Positions 6,889 to 17,513 are shown, counted from the stretch's first letter. The stretch: DNA of 64,000 nt from an uncultured Nitrospiraceae bacterium (GCA_963705105.1 CAVPIW010000006.1:1-64000); one strand, 5' to 3'. The notes: generated from the sequence alone by a model not told the origin. Program-made: numbers and translations.

Positions 6889-8265
6889 TCAAATCTCAAC
6901 CGTGTGGTTGAGGATGACCCCGCCGGACAGGCCGGCGAGCACCCCGCGGAGGCCCTGGCCCCTCACAAACCCTTTCCCGTCCGTGCGGGCGCGGACAAAG
7001 GCCTTGAGCGGCGCCGGCAGCGAGAGCGCGTTGCCCCCGCCGCCGACGGCGACGCCGCCGAGGCCGCCTCCTCCGTTCCTCCCTCCTCCTTTTCCTCCGC
7101 CGCCGAGCTCCAGCGTTAGCATCGCGACGCGGTCAGCAGGAGAGAGGTGCACCGCGATCCTCGCGCCTCCTCCGCCGTCGGACTCGTCGCCGTCGCCGTC
7201 CGAGTCGCCGCGGGCGCGACGCCCGGCGCCGCCGACGAGCCCCTTGCCGCTCGTCGCGGGCGGCGCGAACGTCCTCAGCCACCCGGGCACGCGGGCCGTC
7301 TCCCTCGCGACCGCCAGGTACGGGGCGAACTTGTTGAAGTCAAAGGCCACGGCCCCCTTCCAGCGCCCTCCGGAGGAGGAGGAGGAGGAAGAAGAAGCGT
7401 CTCCCCCTCCCCTTCCGCCAAACTCGGCCTCGACCCCGGCCGCCGCGACCGCCGTCGCCGCGGTAAACGGCGAGATCACGAAGCCGCGCTCGCGCTCGAC
7501 GAGGTTGATCGCGGTCGAGTTGACCTGGTCCGCCTCATCGTTGAGCGTGTAGGTGCCCCATCCGACCGCGCGCCCGCCGAAGAGGCCGGCCTCGCCCTCG
7601 AGGCGCACATGGTTGCCCCTGCCGAACCACGTCGCGGAGCCGCCCAGCGCGCGTGAGTTTATCGAGTCGTCTCCTCCGGCCAGCGCGGAGAGCGCCTTGG
7701 AGGCCACGGCGCCGCTGACGATGCGCTTTTGCTTTTTCGGGCGCGAGACGCGGGCGATGGGGCTGGAATTGCCAAAGTCGAAGCCGACGAGGTAGGTGGT
7801 GGCGTCTGTGGTGTGGGTGTTTTTTGGGGAGGAAGGAAACGGGAAGAGGGTGAGTTCTTCTTTTTCATCGTCATCAATCGTCGGCGCTCCGTCGGCGCCT
7901 CTTTTTTTCCTCTGATCATCCTCATTTCCCTTACCGTCCGCGTTGCCCGCTTCTGCCGTCACGATCACGTCCGTGGGCTTGTCGGACCAGCCCTTGCTCG
8001 CCTTGATGTCGGCCCACGACGCGTCGGTCGCGGAGGCCGTCACCTTGAGGTGCGTGGGGCCCCTGGCGACGGCCGAGAGGTCGACGCGCCCGCCCAGAAC
8101 GTTCGGCTGGGGCGGTGAGACGCTGGGATCCTCGCCCAGGGCGGCCGCGTCGCGGCCCTTGAAGAAGAAGCCCCTGCCGGAGAGCGTGGCGGGACCGAAG
8201 AACCCTTCGATGACCCGGGGCTCGTAGCCGTGCGAGGGCGGCTCCACGTCGAAAAAGGGCGGCAT
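6889..8265 (-). CDS. Hypothetical Gly-rich protein, possible organellar outer-membrane beta-barrel; intron 7934-7806
   Basis: Long open frame with high GC3, an in-frame 129-nt GTAAG...CAG intron, amphipathic beta-strand-like segments and C-terminal GVILNHTVEI. Confidence 0.65.
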   Translation of the reverse strand: MPPFFDVEPPSHGYEPRVIEGFFGPATLSGRGFFFKGRDAAALGEDPSVSPPQPNVLGGRVDLSAVARGPTHLKVTASATDASWADIKASKGWSDKPTDVIVTAEAGNADGKGNEDDQRKKRGADGAPTIDDDEKEELTLFPFPSSPKNTHTTDATTYLVGFDFGNSSPIARVSRPKKQKRIVSGAVASKALSALAGGDDSINSRALGGSATWFGRGNHVRLEGEAGLFGGRAVGWGTYTLNDEADQVNSTAINLVERERGFVISPFTAATAVAAAGVEAEFGGRGGGDASSSSSSSSGGRWKGAVAFDFNKFAPYLAVARETARVPGWLRTFAPPATSGKGLVGGAGRRARGDSDGDGDESDGGGGARIAVHLSPADRVAMLTLELGGGGKGGGRNGGGGLGGVAVGGGGNALSLPAPLKAFVRARTDGKGFVRGQGLRGVLAGLSGGVILNHTVEI

Positions 8266-8626
8266 GATTGTTTTTTTTTTTCCCAATGCTTTTCGCCTCA
8301 ATCGAGGAGAGCAAAAGAGAGAGAAAAGTGACGTCGCATCTTTCTTTCGACCCTCTGCTTTTCTCTTTTCTCTCCCTCTCTCTCTCTTCTTCTCTCTCTC
8401 AAACTCATCCTCCGACCGGGCCTCTTCCTCGAATTATATCATCTATTTTTTTTTGGAAAAGGGCGCGTTCCTTACTATTATCCCAATCGAGAGGATTCAC
8501 ATACGATTAAAAAAGAAAAAAAGAGAAGAGAAAGAGCTCCCACAAACAAAAGCCTCGGCCCACCCTCGGTCTCGATCGCTCTTCCTCTCTTCCCGCTCCA
8601 CCTCTCTCTCTCTCTTCTCTCCTCTC

Positions 8627-10584: not shown

Positions 10585-10912
10585 GGCGAACGAAACGTTT
10601 TAAAGGAGAAAGACAAAGAAGGAGAGAAAAGAGGAAGAGAGTTTGCTTCTCTCGCGATGGATTTTGTGTCGAATTCTTCTCTTCTCCTTCTCGACCTCTC
10701 ACGACCTCTTCTCTCTCTCTTATTTCAGTTTTTGGTATAGCAGTGTTTTGAACGTTTTCGTTCTTGTTACAGATCACAGCGGCGCTTCTTCCTGTCGATT
10801 GAATGAGTGAATGCGCGAGAGAGAGTGGTGAGCGGGGGCGGCGCGCGAGAGAGAAATTGAAGTGAGAGCGAGGGATAAAAGAAACGAAAAAGAAAAAGTG
10901 GAAAAACTTGGA

Positions 10913-11075
10913 AATCATCAGACAAATGCCTCGTTGCTTCGCTCTTCAGCACGGCGCCCATAGTGCGGGGAGGGTACGCCCGCCACGGCAGAACGCCGAT
11001 AAACGGCAGACCATCCCCCCCCGCGAGCAACTCCGGCCTCGGACTCGTCATCTATAGTTGTTGTCGTCATCTGAA
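10913..11075 (-). ncRNA. C/D box snoRNA, U15-like double guide (LSU Am2281 and Gm2288, yeast numbering)
   Basis: C box ATGACGA 11070-11064, D' CCGA 11042-11039, D CTGA 10921-10918, flanking GGAAAAAC/GTTTTTCC stem. Guides ACGAGGCATTTG and TAGATGACGAG are complementary to LSU CCAAAUGCCUCGUCAUCUA, and the D+5 rule lands on the two known methylated residues. Confidence 0.88.
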
Positions 11076-11327
11076 AACTGTTTTTCCTCTGTTTTGCTTT
11101 GTTTCGCTCGCTCGTCACGGTCTCGGGCTCGAGGTTTTTCGTTTTCTTTTTCGGACCACCGAGGAGCGCTTAACGTTTCTCATCTTCTTTCTTCGTCTTC
11201 GTCTTCATTTACTCTGCTTTTGCGAAACACAAGCGCAGCGCGTTTTGCTTGTCGAGGGGATCGGAATTTCTGGCTTGAGTACCTTTGTTCCCTCTTTGCC
11301 GAAGAACAAAAGAGGGACTCAAAGGAT

Positions 11328-11420
11328 TTAGGTCGGCACGGGGAAAAAGAATTTCCCGCGCCTTTATAAGCAATTTTCTAATCAGCTTCGATCAGAGGGG
11401 AAAGGCTCGTCATCTCCCAA
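11328..11420 (-). ncRNA. C/D box snoRNA candidate, likely targeting the LSU CAGCGGGGAAAGAAG region
   Basis: C ATGACGA 11413-11407, D' CTGA, C' CTGATTA, D CCGA 11336-11333, TTGGG/CCTAA stem. Guides CTTTCCCC and TTTCCCCG; the exact target is unclear because of homopolymers. Confidence 0.68.
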
Positions 11421-11688
11421 CGCGACAGGAGGGGAAATGTTTGTGCGGCTTGCGTGTGTCTAGAGAAGAAAAGAGAGAAGAAGAGAAGAAGGGAAGAAGA
11501 GGGGGGGGGTCTTCTTATCTCGCCACCGAACCTCAAAAAAAAACTCTCTCCCTCTCGTTTCTCACCGTTTGCTACTCTCCTACTCTTTCTCTTCGCGAGC
11601 GCTATGCTCGTGTGTCAAGCCACGGAGAGAGAAAAGAAGAAGAAAAAAGACCTGGCGTTTGTCAAAAAAAGAAATAGAGAACAAAGAA

Positions 11689-11839
11689 AAATGTCGTGAG
11701 CCAAAATTCGGCCGCAGTCAGGGAAAAGTAAAAAAAGTCTTTTCTCTTGCGGCCGACTCAACGGCGCCTTTGCTGTGCGCCCCCCCTTCCTGAAAAGGCC
11801 AGGCCACGCCCCCCCGCGGAGAAAGGAGCAAGGGCGCGC
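11689..11839 (-). ncRNA. H/ACA box snoRNA candidate
   Basis: Hairpin (GCGCCCTT...AAGGGGGGCGC), H box ACAGCA 11776-11771, second hairpin (TCGGCCGCA...TGCGGCCGA), then ACA-ttt 11694-11689. Sits alone in a host intron. Confidence 0.6.
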
Positions 11840-12145
11840 AGACGCGCAGGCCGCAAAGCTCCTCGAGATCGAGGGGAGGGGAAGAGACGGAAAGAACCAA
11901 AAAGGCCGGCCGGAAATGGGAAGGGGGGGCAAAAAGAAGCGTCGATGAAAACTCTCTCTCTCTCTCTCTCTCGACACCCGGCGCTCTTTACCTTTTTTTG
12001 TACATCAGAAGCGGAGCGGGGGTCCCCAAGGAGCCGTCGTTTCGTCGACCTGTGAGAACGAATTGGAAGATGAAGAGAGGGGAAGCGTGAGCGAAAAGGG
12101 ACGCCGCACAAGATGGAAACCCTCTCGAGGATGAAAAGTTGTCGC

Positions 12146-12264
12146 ATGGGTCAGAAGCTGAATGGATTAATATTAGCCTGATTGTTTTGCGCACGGGGAG
12201 AAGAGGGAGTTTAACCCCCCCCCGCTCCCCGCTAGCCCATCTAATTATTGATCGTCATTCCCAT
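12146..12264 (-). ncRNA. C/D box snoRNA with antisense to LSU UGAAUGGAUUAA
   Basis: ATGGG/CCCAT terminal stem, C ATGACGA 12258-12252, D CTGA 12154-12151, 12-nt guide TTAATCCATTCA (12170-12159). Target residue ambiguous. Confidence 0.75.
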
Positions 12265-12381
12265 TAAAAGCAACTGCTGTTGACGAAGAAGGGGGGAAAG
12301 AGAGGACGGGAAAAAGTGGCTGCCGTTCGTTGCCCGCTGTTTTTGCTCGGCCCGCTCAAAACAAAAGCTCCGAAAGAACAA

Positions 12382-12463
12382 GGCCTCCGGTATCAGCAGT
12401 TGCATCCTCATTAAGAAAATCGGACGGTAATTCCATTTGTGATTGAGGTTATTCGTCATGGCC
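12382..12463 (-). ncRNA. C/D box snoRNA, snR77/snoR77-like (18S Um578, yeast numbering)
   Basis: C ATGACGA 12459-12453, guide TGGAATTACCG complementary to 18S CGGUAAUUCCA, D' CCGA 12423-12420, C' ATGAGGA 12411-12405, D CTGA 12396-12393. D'+5 pairs with the U of CGGU. Confidence 0.88.
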
Positions 12464-12583
12464 CAAGGGAAAAGAGGTGAAGGAAGTGAAAAATAAGAAG
12501 ATGGGGAAAGAAAAAAAGGTTGACGTCGGCGGCGGCGACGGAAGAAAACAAACGAACCGAAGAAGAAGAGAGCGAAGCCGACT

Positions 12584-12722
12584 AAAGAGCTCATTACTTC
12601 TTAGAGGTTAAAACAAATTTTAGACATCATATCGCGCGAACATGGCGAGTGTGAGGTCGCCGCTTTTAGTGCCGCGCGTATTGATCAGTGGATTGACAGA
12701 TGTCGTTTAATCCTTGCTCTTT
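12584..12722 (-). ncRNA. Double-guide C/D snoRNA for two 18S uridines (snoR14/SNORD110-type and U61/SNORD61-type sites)
   Basis: 7-bp AAAGAGC/GCTCTTT stem, variant C AGGATTA, guide ATCTGTCAATCC (18S GGAUUGACAGAU) before D' CTGA, C' ATGATGT, guide CCTCTAAGAAGT (18S ACUUCUUAGAGG) before variant D ATGA. Confidence 0.82.
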
Positions 12723-12865
12723 TTCTTTTCTTCGTTCGACTTTTCGGTTTTTTCGTCGTCGCGGTCTTTTTTTTTCCTTTTCGTTTTTCGCCGCTGTCGC
12801 CGCCGTCTCCGCAGGAAAGGGGAAAGGGGAAAGGGGAAACAAAATCAAAACTTCAAAACTGCACT

Positions 12866-12982
12866 GCTCTCAGGCGCCGGGGAGTGTAAGTCCCCAGCAA
12901 TATTATTATTCGCTTTTATGTGCTATCAATCACTCAGGTCAGACGGCACTTCCTAACGTTTTTCAAGCAGTCTTCACCGAGC
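12866..12982 (-). ncRNA. C/D box snoRNA candidate, target not recognised (orphan)
   Basis: GCTC/GAGC stem, C-like GTGAAGA 12977-12971, D' CTGA 12942-12939, C'-like GTGATTG, D CTGA 12873-12870. Confidence 0.6.
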
Positions 12983-13231
12983 GAAGATGTTTTTTTTTGT
13001 TTTTTTTTTGTTTGCAAAGTCGAGTTTTTTGTGTAGTGGGGGACGGAGCTTTCTCTCTCTCTTTCTCTTTCTCTTTACTCCCTCTTTTTTCTTACTCAGC
13101 CTTGTCATTCGAGCGAGAAGAAGAAGAACAAGTTGAGGACCTGTGTTTTCGGATGAAAAGAAGGAGAAGGCGCGCCGCGTGAGCCTTTTCATTCCTTTTT
13201 CAAAAAAAATGAAAAAACATCGGAAAAAGTT

Positions 13232-13440
13232 TTCTGTGATCGCCGATTAAAAATGGCACCGGGCAGCGCACGAGAGAAATTAAAAAGCGAATGCCGGCTT
13301 CCTATCATGGAAGGCAGAAGCGGGAGGAGCGATGAAGCCCTTCCTCGATCTCAGCTCGACTGTGAGCAGCAGGCGTCAGCGGCCCTGGTCCCTCGATGAG
13401 GGGGGGCCTCCGCCGGCCGTGGCAAGAAGGCTAGGTGGTA
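13232..13440 (-). ncRNA. Possible H/ACA snoRNA
   Basis: H-like ATAGGA 13305-13300 and ACA-gaa 13237-13232 in a GC-rich island within a host intron; hairpins only partly convincing. Confidence 0.35.
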
Positions 13441-13612
13441 GGAAAATTTCCTCAGCGAAGAGGAAGAGAAAGAGACGAGGAAGAAGAAAAAAACGCACCT
13501 TTTTTGGAACCCCGCTCTTGTTCCCTCGACGACGACGAAGACAGACACGCAAGAAGAGCCGAGCCCACCGCAGAGACCTGCTATTTTGTTATGAAAGAGT
13601 TCAAAAGAAAGG

Positions 13613-13760
13613 AAATGTCAGGGCAGAGTTGACACGGCGTCCAGAAACTTGAAATTTTTCAAAGAATAAAAAAAATTCGTCGGGCCGCAACACGATAGCC
13701 GCCCTGGCGCGCAGTGAAGCGCGGGGCTCGGTTCTCGCACGCGTAACAGGGACGGCATAA
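13613..13760 (-). ncRNA. Possible H/ACA-type snoRNA
   Basis: Stem CAGGGCGG/CTGCCCTG closing directly on ACA-ttt (13618-13613); no clean H box found. Confidence 0.45.
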
Positions 13761-14047
13761 ATCAATGCCATTGAAGATCTTAACCTCTCCTCTTCTTATC
13801 TCTCTCCCAGGGAGAGAGAGGAAGAGAAGGAAAAAGGCGAAAGGGCCGTCCGGGGTAGATAGCGTGCTTTTTGTTTTTTTTTGGTTTCGTGTTTTCTTTC
13901 CTCTCTCTCTCTCTTCTTTTTCGACCTCCTCCGAGCGACGAAAAATCACACAGATCTTGCCTCCCTTTTTTGCCGCCGCGCTTTCCCCCCACCGTCGCCG
14001 AGAGAAAGCTGAGTGTTTGAAAGTGTTTTGAAAAAAGAGAAAACAAA

Positions 14048-14200
14048 AAGTGTACCAGCGAGACAGGTCAGCGGTGGGCCGTTTCGAAAAAAAGAAAAAA
14101 GAAGAAAACTCCTTTTTTTTTAGCAGCTCCTCTGCTGGTTTAAAATCTGGCAAGCGCCACCGGCCTTTTTCAGAGAAAAGGCCGCACGCTGCTCTCCGCC
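14048..14200 (-). ncRNA. H/ACA snoRNA candidate
   Basis: Hairpin CGGCCTTTT/AAAAGGCCG, H-like AGATTT(TA), then stem ACCAGCAGAG/CTCGCTGGT closing on ACA-ctt (14053-14048). Confidence 0.5.
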
Positions 14201-14744
14201 CCCCTTACCCCCCGAAAGGCATTAAGATATAAAATGGAAATTCGACGCCGAGCGCGGGTTCCCTCGCGGGGGAGCAGGAGAGAGGAAGGGAAGAAGAGGG
14301 GAATGAAACTCGACGCGAGAGCAGGCTCTGCATCAAGCGTTTCAATCCCCCCACTCACCCTACCTCCCTCTACCGCTCCCCGGGGTGCGCATCGTTTGGC
14401 ATACGCCGGCCAGTCGGGGAACGCCTCTAAAAAGAGCGGTTTGTTTTTGAAAGTTTTTTTTTGTCTCTCGCTTGCGCTCGCTCGCTCGCTCGCTCAACTC
14501 CTTGTCACGCTCCAACTCTTCGGCTTACCATTTTCGTTTCGAATTTTTTTCTCTATCGACCATAGCGATAGCCGATCGAGACTTCGTCTTTCTCTGTTGG
14601 TGATGATCGAAAGGAGAGCGTGGAGAGAGATTGGCGTGAGCGCGGGAGGAAGAAACAAGGTCAAAGAGGTCGGACGTCGAAAACGACGTCGAAAAAGAAT
14701 GGCCCCTTCTTCTCTTTTTTTTTGCCAAACTCGTTGGCGGCGGC

Positions 14745-14897
14745 GGCGGGCTCGGAAGTTAGTTTATAAGTATTCGATTCCTGCGGCGATTCATCCTCAT
14801 GGAGATGACGCTTCTAGGCGCCAGCTCGGTAGAGGGAGCCGATTCGTCTCTGCCCGCCGTGGAGATGTTTTGAGAAGCTTCAAGAGCATGAGCCGCC
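14745..14897 (-). ncRNA. Possible C/D snoRNA (18S CAGUUAUAGUUUAU region, Um121/123-type site)
   Basis: GC-rich terminal stem, C'-like ATGAGGA, D-like CCGA preceded by ATAAACTA--ACT, which matches the 18S complement apart from a 2-nt gap. C box poor. Confidence 0.4.
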
Positions 14898-15266
14898 GCC
14901 GACGACGAGCTCGAAAGGGAGCCTAGCCAAGGCGGAGGACAGCTCCGTAGTTTTTTCGGCGAAGCACCTACCGTCGATGCCTGCTTACCGTAGGAGATGG
15001 GGATGAGGATTCGGTGCCTCTGCGCTGGTGCTGACGAGAGAGAGAGCGAGAAGAGGGAGAGCGAGAGCGGGAGAGAGAGACGTCGACCGATGCGGACGAC
15101 GTCGCCGCTCATGGCTCTCGCCGATCGAGTTTTTCCTGATTTTTATGTCGCTCCTGCTCGCCTCGATTTTTTTTTCAGTAATCACTTTCCTTCTCTTTTT
15201 CTTCTTCTTCTTCTCCTTCCTCCTCCTTCCATCCCTTTCTCTCAACACCACTTCATCTCACACAAG

Positions 15267-17513
15267 ATGTCTGACAAGGAGGGCTCGCCCCCCAAGTGAG
15301 TGCTGCCTCCTTCTCGCATGTCGCGTGCGACGCGCGGGCAACGGCAGAGAGAGAAGAGAGAGAGAGCAGAAAGAGAAAGAGCAAGCCATAAAAAAAAACG
15401 ACGTCTTTTTCTGGCGGCCGCCGTCGATGATGGCGCGTCTTTCTCTTTCTCCTTCTCTCTTGCTCACCCTTGCCTTTCTCTCTTTATCTTTCGACATTTC
15501 TCAACGACAGGCCCGACGACGCCAGCGACGAAGAGCGCGAAGGTGAGAGAAGATGGCTTTGAGATAGAAGAAAAGAGAATTTTTCGACGTCGTCGTCGTT
15601 GTTTGCTCGCGATCGCTTTTCGTTTTTTTTTTCTCTCCAGCTCTCACCTCTCAACCTCCTCTCTCTCTCTCCTCTTCTTCCCTCCCCCAAACTTAAAAAA
15701 AACACACCAGGCCGCTCCCGCTCCCGCTCGCGCTCCAACGCCGACGGCCGCGACGGCGCCGCCGACCGCTCCCGCTCCCGCTCCCGCTCCAACCCCAAGG
15801 ACGACGGGGGCGACAAGGAAGCTCCCGCGCGACGAAAAGAAATCCGAGCAGCCTAAAAAAGATGAGAAGCCGGCGCCGATCGACTGGAAGACCAACCTCG
15901 AGAACCTCGTGTCCGAGGGCTACCTCCGCGAGGGGGACATCGACGCCGCGGCGCACGACGCGCTGGCCGCTTTGCCGCAGGAGAGCGCCAACCTGGCCGT
16001 GCAGAGGCTCCGCGAGTCGTCGCTGGCGCGCGTCACCAACAAGTCTGGTTTCCTGCTCGGCATCATCCGCAGGCTCGGCGACGCCGACGGCGGCCGCGGA
16101 GGAGGCGGCGACGACGGCGACGCCATCGCGCACCTGGCGGAGAAGCGCGACTTCCACCACGTGGGCCGCAAGCTCCAGGAGATGGTCGCCGAGGGGCGCA
16201 TCTCCAACGGCGACGTCGACCGCAGGCTGTCCCGCGCGCTCGGCGACCTGGGACCCCGTCTGGCGGAAGAGGCCGTCGACAAGTTTGCCCAGGCGAACCT
16301 GGAGTCGGTGCGCTCCAAGGCGGGCTTCTTCATGGGCATCGTCCGCAGGCTGGAGAGGGACCAGCAGGGCGGTGGGGGAGGCCGTGGCGGGGGCCGCGGG
16401 GGATACGGGGACCGCGGAGGTGAGGGAAGAGAGTTTTGGAGAGAGTTCTTTTTTCGAGAACGAAAACGAAAATGACGGCGGCGAAGAAGAAGAAAAAAAA
16501 GCTCACTTTTCAACTCTCTCTTTCAATTCTCTTTTTCAATTCTCTCTCAAAAAAATAGGCTACGGCGGCGGTGACCGCGGCCACTACGGCGGCGGCGGCG
16601 GCGACCGCTACGGAGGAGGTGGCGGTGGCTACGGCGGAGGCGGCGGGTGAGTTTTCGTCCTTTTTCTGTCTGCCTCTTTCTTTCTAAAAAAAATCTCTCT
16701 CTTTCGGCCACCTCTCTCACCTCTCTCAATTCTTTCTTATCTTTCTATCTTCTCCTCTCTTCGCATCCCAAAGCACGGCGGCGGTGGCGGCTACCAGGGA
16801 GGCGGTGGCGGCAACTACGGAGGCGGCGGTGGCTACGGCCAGCAGGGCGGCGGCGGCTACGGGCGGCGGCGGCTAGTGAGGTTTTTTTTTGGTTTTGAGT
16901 TTAGAGAGAGGAAAAGAGAGGAGAAGAAGAGAAAAGACGACGATCAAACGTCATTTGCTCATGATCGATTTTCCCCTTCATCTCATCTCCCAACCCTACA
17001 CTCACAAAACAGCGGTGGCGGCGGTCGGCTACGGCGGCGGTGGCGGCTATGGCCAGCAGGGCGGCGGCGGCGGGTGAGATTTGTTTTGTTTCCCGTTCTC
17101 TCTCTCTGTGCACAGTCGCTTCATGCGAAAAAAAACGGTCTGCGCACGAAAAAAAACTTTCAAAAAAATGATTCAAACACCATTATTTTTCCTTTTTCCC
17201 GCTCACTTTGCGCCGTTTTTCCCTTCTTTCTTTTTCTTTACTTTTCTTTGCCACGAACAGTTACTATGGTGGAAGCGGAGGAGGGCTACTACCAGGGAGG
17301 AGGCGGTGGCGGGTGAGTCCAGAAAACTCCTTTTTGATTTTCTGTTTTTTGCGTTTTCGGCGTTGGTTTTGTCTTCGTTTCGTCCTCTTCTTCTCACCTT
17401 CCTTCCCTTTCTCACTTGTTTAACCTTCGTTTCTCTCAACTCAACAGCTACAGCGGCGGCGGCGGCTACGGACAGCAGCAGGGGGAGGCGGCGGCGGCTA
17501 CGGAGGCCGCTAG
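15267..17513 (+). CDS. Putative RNA-binding protein: RS-like N-terminus, two hnRNP-Q acidic-domain-like repeats, Gly/Tyr/Gln-rich tail; about 8 exons
   Basis: Repeats ...ESSLARVTNKSGFLLGIIRRL and ...KFAQANLESVRSKAGFFMGIVRRL; GGYGG-coding small exons bounded by CAG/GTGAG. Confidence 0.72.

Follow-up and report, generated by a model that had tools for sequence, protein, structure and literature searches.

What does a 4.4-kb gap between two genes contain when no credible protein can be read in it? The question is raised by a stretch of 64,000 nucleotides (nt) deposited as DNA of an uncultured Nitrospiraceae bacterium (GCA_963705105.1, contig CAVPIW010000006.1:1-64000, hereafter the window, on contig C6). 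A first-pass annotation, made from the sequence alone, had proposed that the minus strand of the gap is a non-coding host gene for small nucleolar RNAs (snoRNAs). Based on the anatomy of the gap, complementarity to ribosomal RNA (rRNA), comparison with related loci, and RNA contigs from close strains, we consider it very probable that the gap holds an algal (chlorophyte) minus-strand gene that is spliced, whose exons are likely non-coding, and whose seven predicted introns carry eleven predicted rRNA-guide snoRNAs.

Exons, introns, and spliced RNA

The minus strand of the gap has eight short exons separated by seven predicted introns, with CAG at every acceptor, GT at six donors, and GC at one. 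The annotation had expected about eight short exons with good splice sites and a terminal TGTAA, and this proved correct; TGTAA lies at 10771-10767 in exon 8, past the last junction (11566/10791). The five junctions that it had listed all fall on CAG acceptors and GT donors, but its direct join 14529/13577 probably skips an additional exon, 14008-13961, which has the GC donor. An exon is found at this position in all five lineages for which we built the gene (the window, the close strains L168 and L166, and the distant lineages L177 and L180), and its donor (13960) is GC in the window and L168 and GT in L166, L177, and L180.

RNA evidence comes from three metatranscriptome runs of two studies, X1 (polyA) and X2 and X3 (complementary DNA). 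The exons are listed with their splice sites (a slash marks the cut) and the contigs that bear on them.

14989..15120, minus strand: exon 1; donor ACG/GTAAGC; an X1 contig joins 14555 to 15038
14529..14593, minus strand: exon 2; CAG/ and /GTAAGC; 14531-14555 covered by an X1 contig
13961..14008, minus strand: exon 3, predicted; CAG/ and GAG/GCAAG (GC donor)
13499..13577, minus strand: exon 4; CAG/ and /GTGCGT; an X1 contig covers 13500-13542 and joins 14531
13096..13140, minus strand: exon 5; CAG/ and /GTAAGA; an X1 loose end at 12043 reads into the L168-type version
11992..12049, minus strand: exon 6; in X1 and X2 contigs, its letters fall between the joints at 11653 and 12017/12021
11566..11651, minus strand: exon 7; piece 11565-11653 of an X2 contig, with joints at either end
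10703..10791, minus strand: exon 8; an X2 contig joins 11565 to exon 8 and extends to 10703; 3′ end putative

The upstream limit of exon 1 (15120) is a working bound for a putative 5′ end, and the ATG of this exon, at 15112, is absent from L168 and L166.

Spliced RNA of this gene is present in close strains. In an X2 contig, exons 8, 7, and 6 are spliced together, and this contig runs to 10703; exons 7 and 6 are likewise joined in an X1 polyA contig, which continues into exon 5 of an L168-type strain; and a second X1 contig joins 13542 to 14531 and 14555 to 15038. Together the contigs skip six of the seven introns: 1, 2 and 3 as one, 5, 6, and 7. Because the contigs show neither strand nor level, we take them as support for presence only.

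The 3′ end of the transcript bears on whether the exons instead form an extended 5′ untranslated region, rich in introns, of the epimerase gene that follows on the same strand, with the snoRNAs lying in introns of a coding gene, as is usual in Chlamydomonas and Ostreococcus. The probable start codon of the epimerase is ~185 nt beyond TGTAA, the synteny of the two genes holds in every lineage with the cluster, intronic snoRNAs of Ostreococcus do lie in coding genes, and the X2 contig extends at least 64 nt beyond TGTAA. However, TGTAA is present in the last exon of four of the five lineages, the contig from the polyA library stops ~4 nt after it, and upstream open reading frames (ORFs) of 89, 65, and 54 amino acids would precede the epimerase start codon. 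We regard this arrangement as quite unlikely. Among the contigs listed, none connects the host with the epimerase gene, and several spacers are covered by none of them, although holes between contigs are not evidence.

Box C/D and box H/ACA RNAs in the introns

The annotation had also anticipated about eleven islands with C/D or H/ACA boxes, in a mixture of single- and multi-snoRNA introns. This is what we find: seven box C/D and four box H/ACA RNAs, distributed 1, 1, 1, 1, 4, 1, and 2 over the introns from 5′ to 3′. They are given here with their predicted targets.

14744..14859, minus strand: C/D-1, intron 1, SnoR30-like, 18S G392 guide; D′ CCGA at 14829, D CCGA at 14755, atypical C box
12866..12983, minus strand: C/D-5, intron 5, U49/snoZ112-like, predicted guide for 25S C2880 and possibly C1518
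12584..12721, minus strand: C/D-6, intron 5, dual guide for 18S U1235 (SnoR14-like) and U1384 (U61-like)
12380..12464, minus strand: C/D-7, intron 5, snoR77Y-like, 18S U582 guide, 11 base pairs (bp)
12146..12264, minus strand: C/D-8, intron 5, probable 25S C2294 guide via a non-canonical D′
11257..11419, minus strand: C/D-10, intron 7, snoZ103-like, three antisense elements conserved in five lineages
10915..11074, minus strand: C/D-11, intron 7, U15-like, with 25S A2282 (D) and G2289 (D′) as dual targets
14048..14438, minus strand: H/ACA-2, intron 2, long; H at 14195, ACA at 14053
13613..13868, minus strand: H/ACA-3, intron 3; ACA at 13618, atypical H box
13232..13433, minus strand: H/ACA-4, intron 4; ACA at 13237, variant H box; conserved in L177 and L180
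11689..11931, minus strand: H/ACA-9, intron 6; H at 11776, ACA at 11694

Boxes are found in all seven C/D RNAs, several of them variant. Terminal stems of 4 to 7 bp, whose sequences differ in the relatives, close C/D-5 to C/D-8; those of C/D-1, C/D-10, and C/D-11 were read from alignments, since the pattern search missed them or took the wrong box. Eight D or D′ guides, in six of the seven RNAs, put D+5 on a nucleotide known to be methylated in Arabidopsis; one of them (in C/D-8) does so via a non-canonical D′. The measured Arabidopsis 2′-O-methyl sites in question, as given in Table 1 of PMC8053127, are G392 (SnoR30), U582 (SnoR77Y), U1235 (SnoR14), U1384 (U61), C2880 and C1518 (U49), A2282 and G2289 (U15), and C2294 (SnoR131-133). 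On the reference rRNA locus L161, which we take as plant-like because its numbering agrees with that of Arabidopsis within 1 nt, D+5 falls on 18S G392, U581, U1234, and U1383 and on the 25S C that precedes the Ψ2880-type site (Ψ, pseudouridine); on L143, it falls on the A and the G of the U15 region. The rRNA loci were compared with each other by BLAST; a pattern scan of viral contigs for rRNA gave 120 loci, none in an rRNA context.

C/D-1 has a 10-bp guide with D+5 at G392 of L161 and is conserved in L177 and L180. The C/D-5 guide forms 11 of 12 pairs at the C2880 site and 8 pairs at the site equated with C1518, a U49-like dual target, and is identical to the guide of Rfam snoZ112 (18.6 bits). 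C/D-8 has antisense matches of 9 and 12 nt in L143, and C/D-11 has matches of 10 and 11 nt there. An extra antisense element adjoins the target of C/D-1, and the five-lineage alignment shows one in C/D-8 that pairs 20 nt downstream; both follow a pattern of elements beside targets that PMC8053127 describes for 45 of 104 sites. Other Rfam matches are to SNORD61 for C/D-6 (21.5 bits in the window, with SNORD110 and snoU61 below threshold in relatives), snoR77Y for C/D-7 (36.3 bits, E 5e-5, gathering threshold 52), snoZ103 for C/D-10 (22.2 bits in the window and 32.1 in L180, gathering threshold 44), and snR75, SNOR75, and SNORD15, all sub-threshold, for C/D-11. The sub-threshold matches (snoR77Y, snoZ112, SNORD61, snoZ103, snR75, and SNORD15) lie on the correct islands and strand.

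Perfect 10-nt rRNA antisense ending 1 nt before CTGA, CCGA, or ATGA occurs six times on the minus strand and never on the plus strand, while 1,000 dinucleotide shuffles gave a mean of 0.39 and a maximum of 4, with 0/1000 reaching 6. In the remaining 77.6 kb of algal DNA there are 11 such matches, both strands counted, or 0.31 per equal length and strand. Since one of the six (14430-14419) is better read as an H/ACA pocket, five C/D matches remain, which is still above every shuffle. We rejected 14430-14419 as a C/D guide: the CCCC that follows it pairs with a run of conserved G, and a D-like box is missing from this place in L177.

Three further candidates were set aside: a second C/D-1 guide upstream of the D box, which is not conserved; an rRNA U-to-A variant as the cause of the C/D-5 mismatch, since that letter is also found in the snoZ112 consensus and gives perfect pairing at the C1518 site; and many Rfam hits to microRNA families, which are purine/pyrimidine hairpins far below threshold. 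Separately, certain box variants recur (13351, 12389, 12594, 14755, and their L177 and L180 equivalents), namely, an H box ending in G, D boxes CCGA, CGGA, and ATGA, and C box RTGACGA. The guide element of C/D-1 has one perfect 13-nt match elsewhere in C6:15300-83000, by chance or as a paralogue. Of the antisense elements of C/D-10, some are complementary to a pair of 25S segments on either side of the C1518 site and another to the G2816 region, and the element for the G2816 region always stands 5 nt before box D.

By folds and box scan, all four H/ACA RNAs have an ACA box, and the H box is canonical in H/ACA-2 and H/ACA-9 and variant in H/ACA-3 and H/ACA-4. H/ACA-9 folds as two hairpins with a z-score of -4.05 (0/200 shuffles as good). 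For their targets, we asked which uridine (U) each bipartite pocket would frame, ~14 to 16 nt from H or ACA, and scored all 1,124 U of the reference for seven pockets (both pockets of H/ACA-2, H/ACA-3, and H/ACA-4 and the 3′ pocket of H/ACA-9). Scored jointly for the window, L177, and L180, five of the seven pockets have a single best rRNA site, and four of these sites equal yeast Ψ sites, an equivalence set by offset from the methylation anchors. The 3′ pocket of H/ACA-2 points to the 25S site equal to yeast Ψ2975 and its 5′ pocket to a 25S U ~135 nt further 3′, both ranking 1 of 1,124 in the three lineages. The 3′ pockets of H/ACA-3 and H/ACA-4, each also ranking first, point to the 18S site equal to Ψ1191 and the 25S site equal to Ψ2880, and that of H/ACA-9 points to the 18S site equal to Ψ1187, tied first with the adjacent U. 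The yeast guides for these sites are snR42 (Ψ2975), snR35 (Ψ1191), snR34 (Ψ2880), and snR36 (Ψ1187) (table in PMC5699541). The length of H/ACA-2 varies, from ~390 nt in the window (14438-14048) to 164 in L177 (8501-8338) and 236 in L180 (8872-8637), and the long form is found in the RNA contigs. The two 5′ pocket strands of H/ACA-4 (13431-13417 and 13371-13358) are almost invariant across distant lineages; a small nuclear RNA target or a bulged pairing is possible for this pocket.

Short, deep RNA contigs lie on five islands (depth 126 to 731) and end 0 to 7 nt from the predicted 3′ ends, although contig ends and levels are unreliable. On H/ACA-2, an X2 contig of depth 731 ends at 14051 and an X3 contig of depth 567 reaches 14427; on H/ACA-3, an X2 contig of depth 384 ends at 13616 with adapter; on C/D-5, an X3 contig of depth 207 ends at 12864 with adapter; on H/ACA-9, X2 and X3 contigs of depths 366 and 313 end at 11696; and on C/D-11, an X2 contig of depth 126 stops matching at 10915.

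From what is known of plants, yeast, and animals, we infer that an RNA polymerase II precursor would start at a compact promoter shared with the divergent hnRNP-domain gene, whose ATG is 278 nt from the first host donor in the window (103 to 289 nt across four lineages). Debranching and exonucleolytic trimming would release the snoRNAs from single-snoRNA introns, additional internal cuts would be needed in the four- and two-snoRNA introns, and the spliced exon RNA would decay as a by-product. The snoRNAs would then direct 2′-O-methyl and pseudouridine modification of 18S and 25S rRNA. The need for internal cuts would also fit a different route, in which endonucleases cut most of the snoRNAs out of a precursor that is still unspliced or only in part spliced, in the manner of polycistronic plant clusters, with splicing incidental. 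The presence of intron 7 in a polyA contig (depth 51.6) fits this route, as does the mobility of one spacer exon, which lies after C/D-8 and before H/ACA-9 in the window and between C/D-6 and C/D-7 in L177 and L180. Yet seven introns with canonical sites persist in five lineages despite the loss of exon sequence, and spliced RNA is found in two studies, which leaves this route only a slight chance.

Conservation of the locus and weight of the evidence

A metagenome scan with the neighboring hnRNP-domain protein gave 20 loci, 12 of which were examined for snoRNA elements. L168, L171, and L172 (88%) and L166 (78%) are close strains, and L177/L179 and L180 are distant lineages. The gene order, WD40 gene, unknown gene, epimerase, gap, and hnRNP gene, is kept in close and distant lineages wherever the DNA reaches. 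As the annotation's proposed synteny check required, the 11 RNAs are all present in both distant algal relatives, with order and flanking genes unchanged, and window elements recur in order with at most one mismatch in 18 of 20 cases in L177 and 16 of 20 in L180.

It is the islands, rather than the exons, that are conserved. Identity between the window and L166 is 88.7% in snoRNA islands, 63.4% in exons, and 56.5% in intron spacers, and between the window and L168 it is 87.4%, 71.0%, and 77.9%, respectively, counting ~65 conserved bases of H/ACA-9 as spacer (5′ bound 11866) and using some exon boundaries of relatives that were later revised. Eight exons with canonical sites are present in all five lineages, their internal lengths differ by non-multiples of three, and blastn of the window exons against L177 and L180 gave no match.

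The spliced RNA might still encode a small, fast-evolving protein or peptide. The spliced form in the window has ORFs of 89, 65, and 54 amino acids, a stretch of ~13 residues over exons 6 and 7 is alike in three close lineages, and the best peptide score between the window and L177 lies at the limit of what shuffles reach. Start codons, ORF lengths, and reading frames vary, however, even between strains with exons 63 to 71% identical; the longest ATG ORFs across the five lineages are 89, 27, 68, 39, and 42 amino acids; a Pfam search of 11 ORFs in the gap had no match (0/11) at E 0.01; and the exons are barely better kept than the intron spacers. The best scores of the window with L180 and of L177 with L180 were reached by 27 and 7 of 100 shuffles, respectively. 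We consider such a product highly improbable, and comparison of the five lineages suggests that the host exons likely encode no protein, consistent with the first reading of the gap. Each of these three alternatives is less well supported than a non-coding host.

Several observations weigh against the non-coding snoRNA host. As to targets, these were read on rRNA contigs of other eukaryotes (L161, with 120 nt of L143 for a gap). The pocket test is partly circular because pocket edges were set by eye with the targets in mind; in a pocket search with the window only, two of the five favored sites were not first (the H/ACA-3 3′ site was tied, and the H/ACA-9 3′ site was outside the top four); and U scoring gave no clear rRNA target for the 5′ pockets of H/ACA-3 and H/ACA-4. 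No antisense element of C/D-10 places D+5 on a known site. Several C/D and H/ACA boxes are non-canonical. Rfam, which the annotation had named as a check, gave no family at gathering score anywhere in the window, only the sub-threshold matches, and the H/ACA RNAs and C/D-1 had no snoRNA-family match even below threshold. By anatomy and targets, the island RNAs qualify as C/D and H/ACA snoRNAs; by score, they do not belong to the named Rfam families.

As to RNA, the contigs are assembled, unstranded, and from strains that differ from the window, and the upstream joints come from one contig of depth 5.2. The X1 polyA contig in which the upstream introns are spliced (depth 51.6) retains intron 7 (11565-10792), which the X2 contig removes. 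Spliced RNA, which the annotation had named as a check, is seen for six introns, whereas skipping of intron 4 is not displayed in the contigs and exon 3 is predicted only. As to conservation, the more distant L183, L184, and L185 have no snoRNA cluster beside the hnRNP-like gene in the DNA examined, and the window/L177 peptide score of 48 was reached by only 1 of 100 shuffles, which is borderline.

Algal setting and relation to known snoRNA hosts

The assembly (4.2 Mb in 19 contigs) has tRNA clusters of bacterial look, and the first 83 kb of C6 are rich in introns and microsatellites, with an abrupt change to bacterial-type coding sequence near 82.95 kb (a switch near 82950 judged by reading the printed sequence). 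The assembly is chimeric, with an 83-kb algal piece joined directly to a bacterial contig. The snoRNA host sits in algal DNA, since the first 83 kb of C6 are algal-like and bacterial coding lies beyond. The first 10 kb of another contig (C4:1-10000) are likewise microsatellite-rich and algal-looking.

The annotation had placed a divergent RNA-binding-protein gene beside the host, and such a gene is there:

15267..16475, plus strand: divergent neighbor gene, 5′ part, ATG at 15267; context, outside the host

Its product has two hnRNP_Q_AcD (hnRNP Q acidic) domains (PF18360, E 5e-25), and its nearest named match is from Myrmecia bisecta, at 43%. By Pfam, the downstream neighbor on the minus strand is a NAD-dependent epimerase gene, UDP-glucuronate-decarboxylase-like, and a nearby WD40 protein has Micractinium, Gonium, and Chlorella matches at 32 to 39%. 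The alga thus appears to be a core chlorophyte, perhaps a trebouxiophyte. An intron-containing gene without a Pfam match lies at 6889-8433 on the minus strand, and its synteny is kept in L177 and L180.

GAS5 and UHG of animals are spliced hosts in which the intronic snoRNAs are conserved and the short exons are little conserved; animal hosts have a 5′ terminal oligopyrimidine start, and their spliced RNA is removed by nonsense-mediated decay. The algal gene resembles these SNHG genes of vertebrates and Drosophila in its spliced layout, its short and poorly kept exons, and its conserved intronic snoRNAs; it has a spliced transcript with intronic snoRNAs and exons without a conserved ORF (one peptide score is borderline). 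It differs from them in having two multi-snoRNA introns and a mixture of C/D and H/ACA RNAs, and we claim no sequence homology. Intronic clusters were reportedly described by Chen et al. in 2008 in Chlamydomonas reinhardtii, likewise a green alga with several snoRNAs per intron.

Non-coding snoRNA hosts have been described in vertebrates (PMC5122169), and the annotation's analogy with animal hosts is apt, but the type is not confined to animals. According to the account of Neurospora crassa snoRNA clusters I-V in PMC2780460, these are UHG-like spliced hosts with short ORFs only, conserved cluster content, and alternative splicing; they hold C/D RNAs only, mostly one per intron, whereas the algal gene has four H/ACA RNAs, multi-snoRNA introns, and another snoRNA set. 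The novelty of the algal gene is lowered because spliced non-coding hosts are thus known from Neurospora also. In the chlorophyte Ostreococcus tauri, which has both intronic and clustered snoRNAs, PMC7671301 places 72 intronic snoRNAs in protein-coding genes and describes two clusters as intronic, the other clusters being intergenic polycistrons, some over small doubtful coding sequences; in both respects, it differs from the algal host. The green-algal snoRNA hosts treated in PMC7671301 and PMC8226300 are described as protein-coding, and the intronic examples from Arabidopsis in PMC2875012 are in coding genes. Our literature search, which did not take in the content of Chen et al. 2008, found no description of a spliced non-coding snoRNA host in green algae.

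The predicted target nucleotides are those of Arabidopsis SnoR30, SnoR77Y, SnoR14, U61, U49, U15, and SnoR131-133 and of yeast snR34, snR35, snR36, and snR42; for U15 and U49, this extends to both targets. The homology is one of targets and guides only, with scores below Rfam thresholds, and the guides of SnoR14 and U61 are fused in one algal RNA. A broader role for this order-conserved chlorophyte host can be imagined, although we think it rather unlikely as a whole: it might co-deliver guides for neighbors at the decoding site (Ψ1187 and Ψ1191) and in the peptidyl-transferase region (Cm2880, Ψ2881, Am2282, Gm2289, and Cm2294), and gate the last two snoRNAs by retention of intron 7, among them a Z103-like, non-methylating RNA that would act as a folding chaperone by bridging two 25S rRNA segments far from each other.

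The algal host works like a GAS5/UHG-type gene; its layout is known from animals and fungi, and the gene is real but fairly ordinary. The accepted view of snoRNA function is unaffected by it. In practical terms, an 83-kb algal piece is flagged within a bacterial genome assembly. Aligned algal counterparts are supplied for roughly a dozen guides of plants and yeast; standard homology search misses such counterparts, a failing that PMC5122169 notes for snoRNAs. With a fixed snoRNA order and a shifted spacer exon, the five lineages form a small natural series for exon gain and loss in snoRNA hosts, and the spliced non-coding hosts of animals and fungi are extended to a core chlorophyte lineage.

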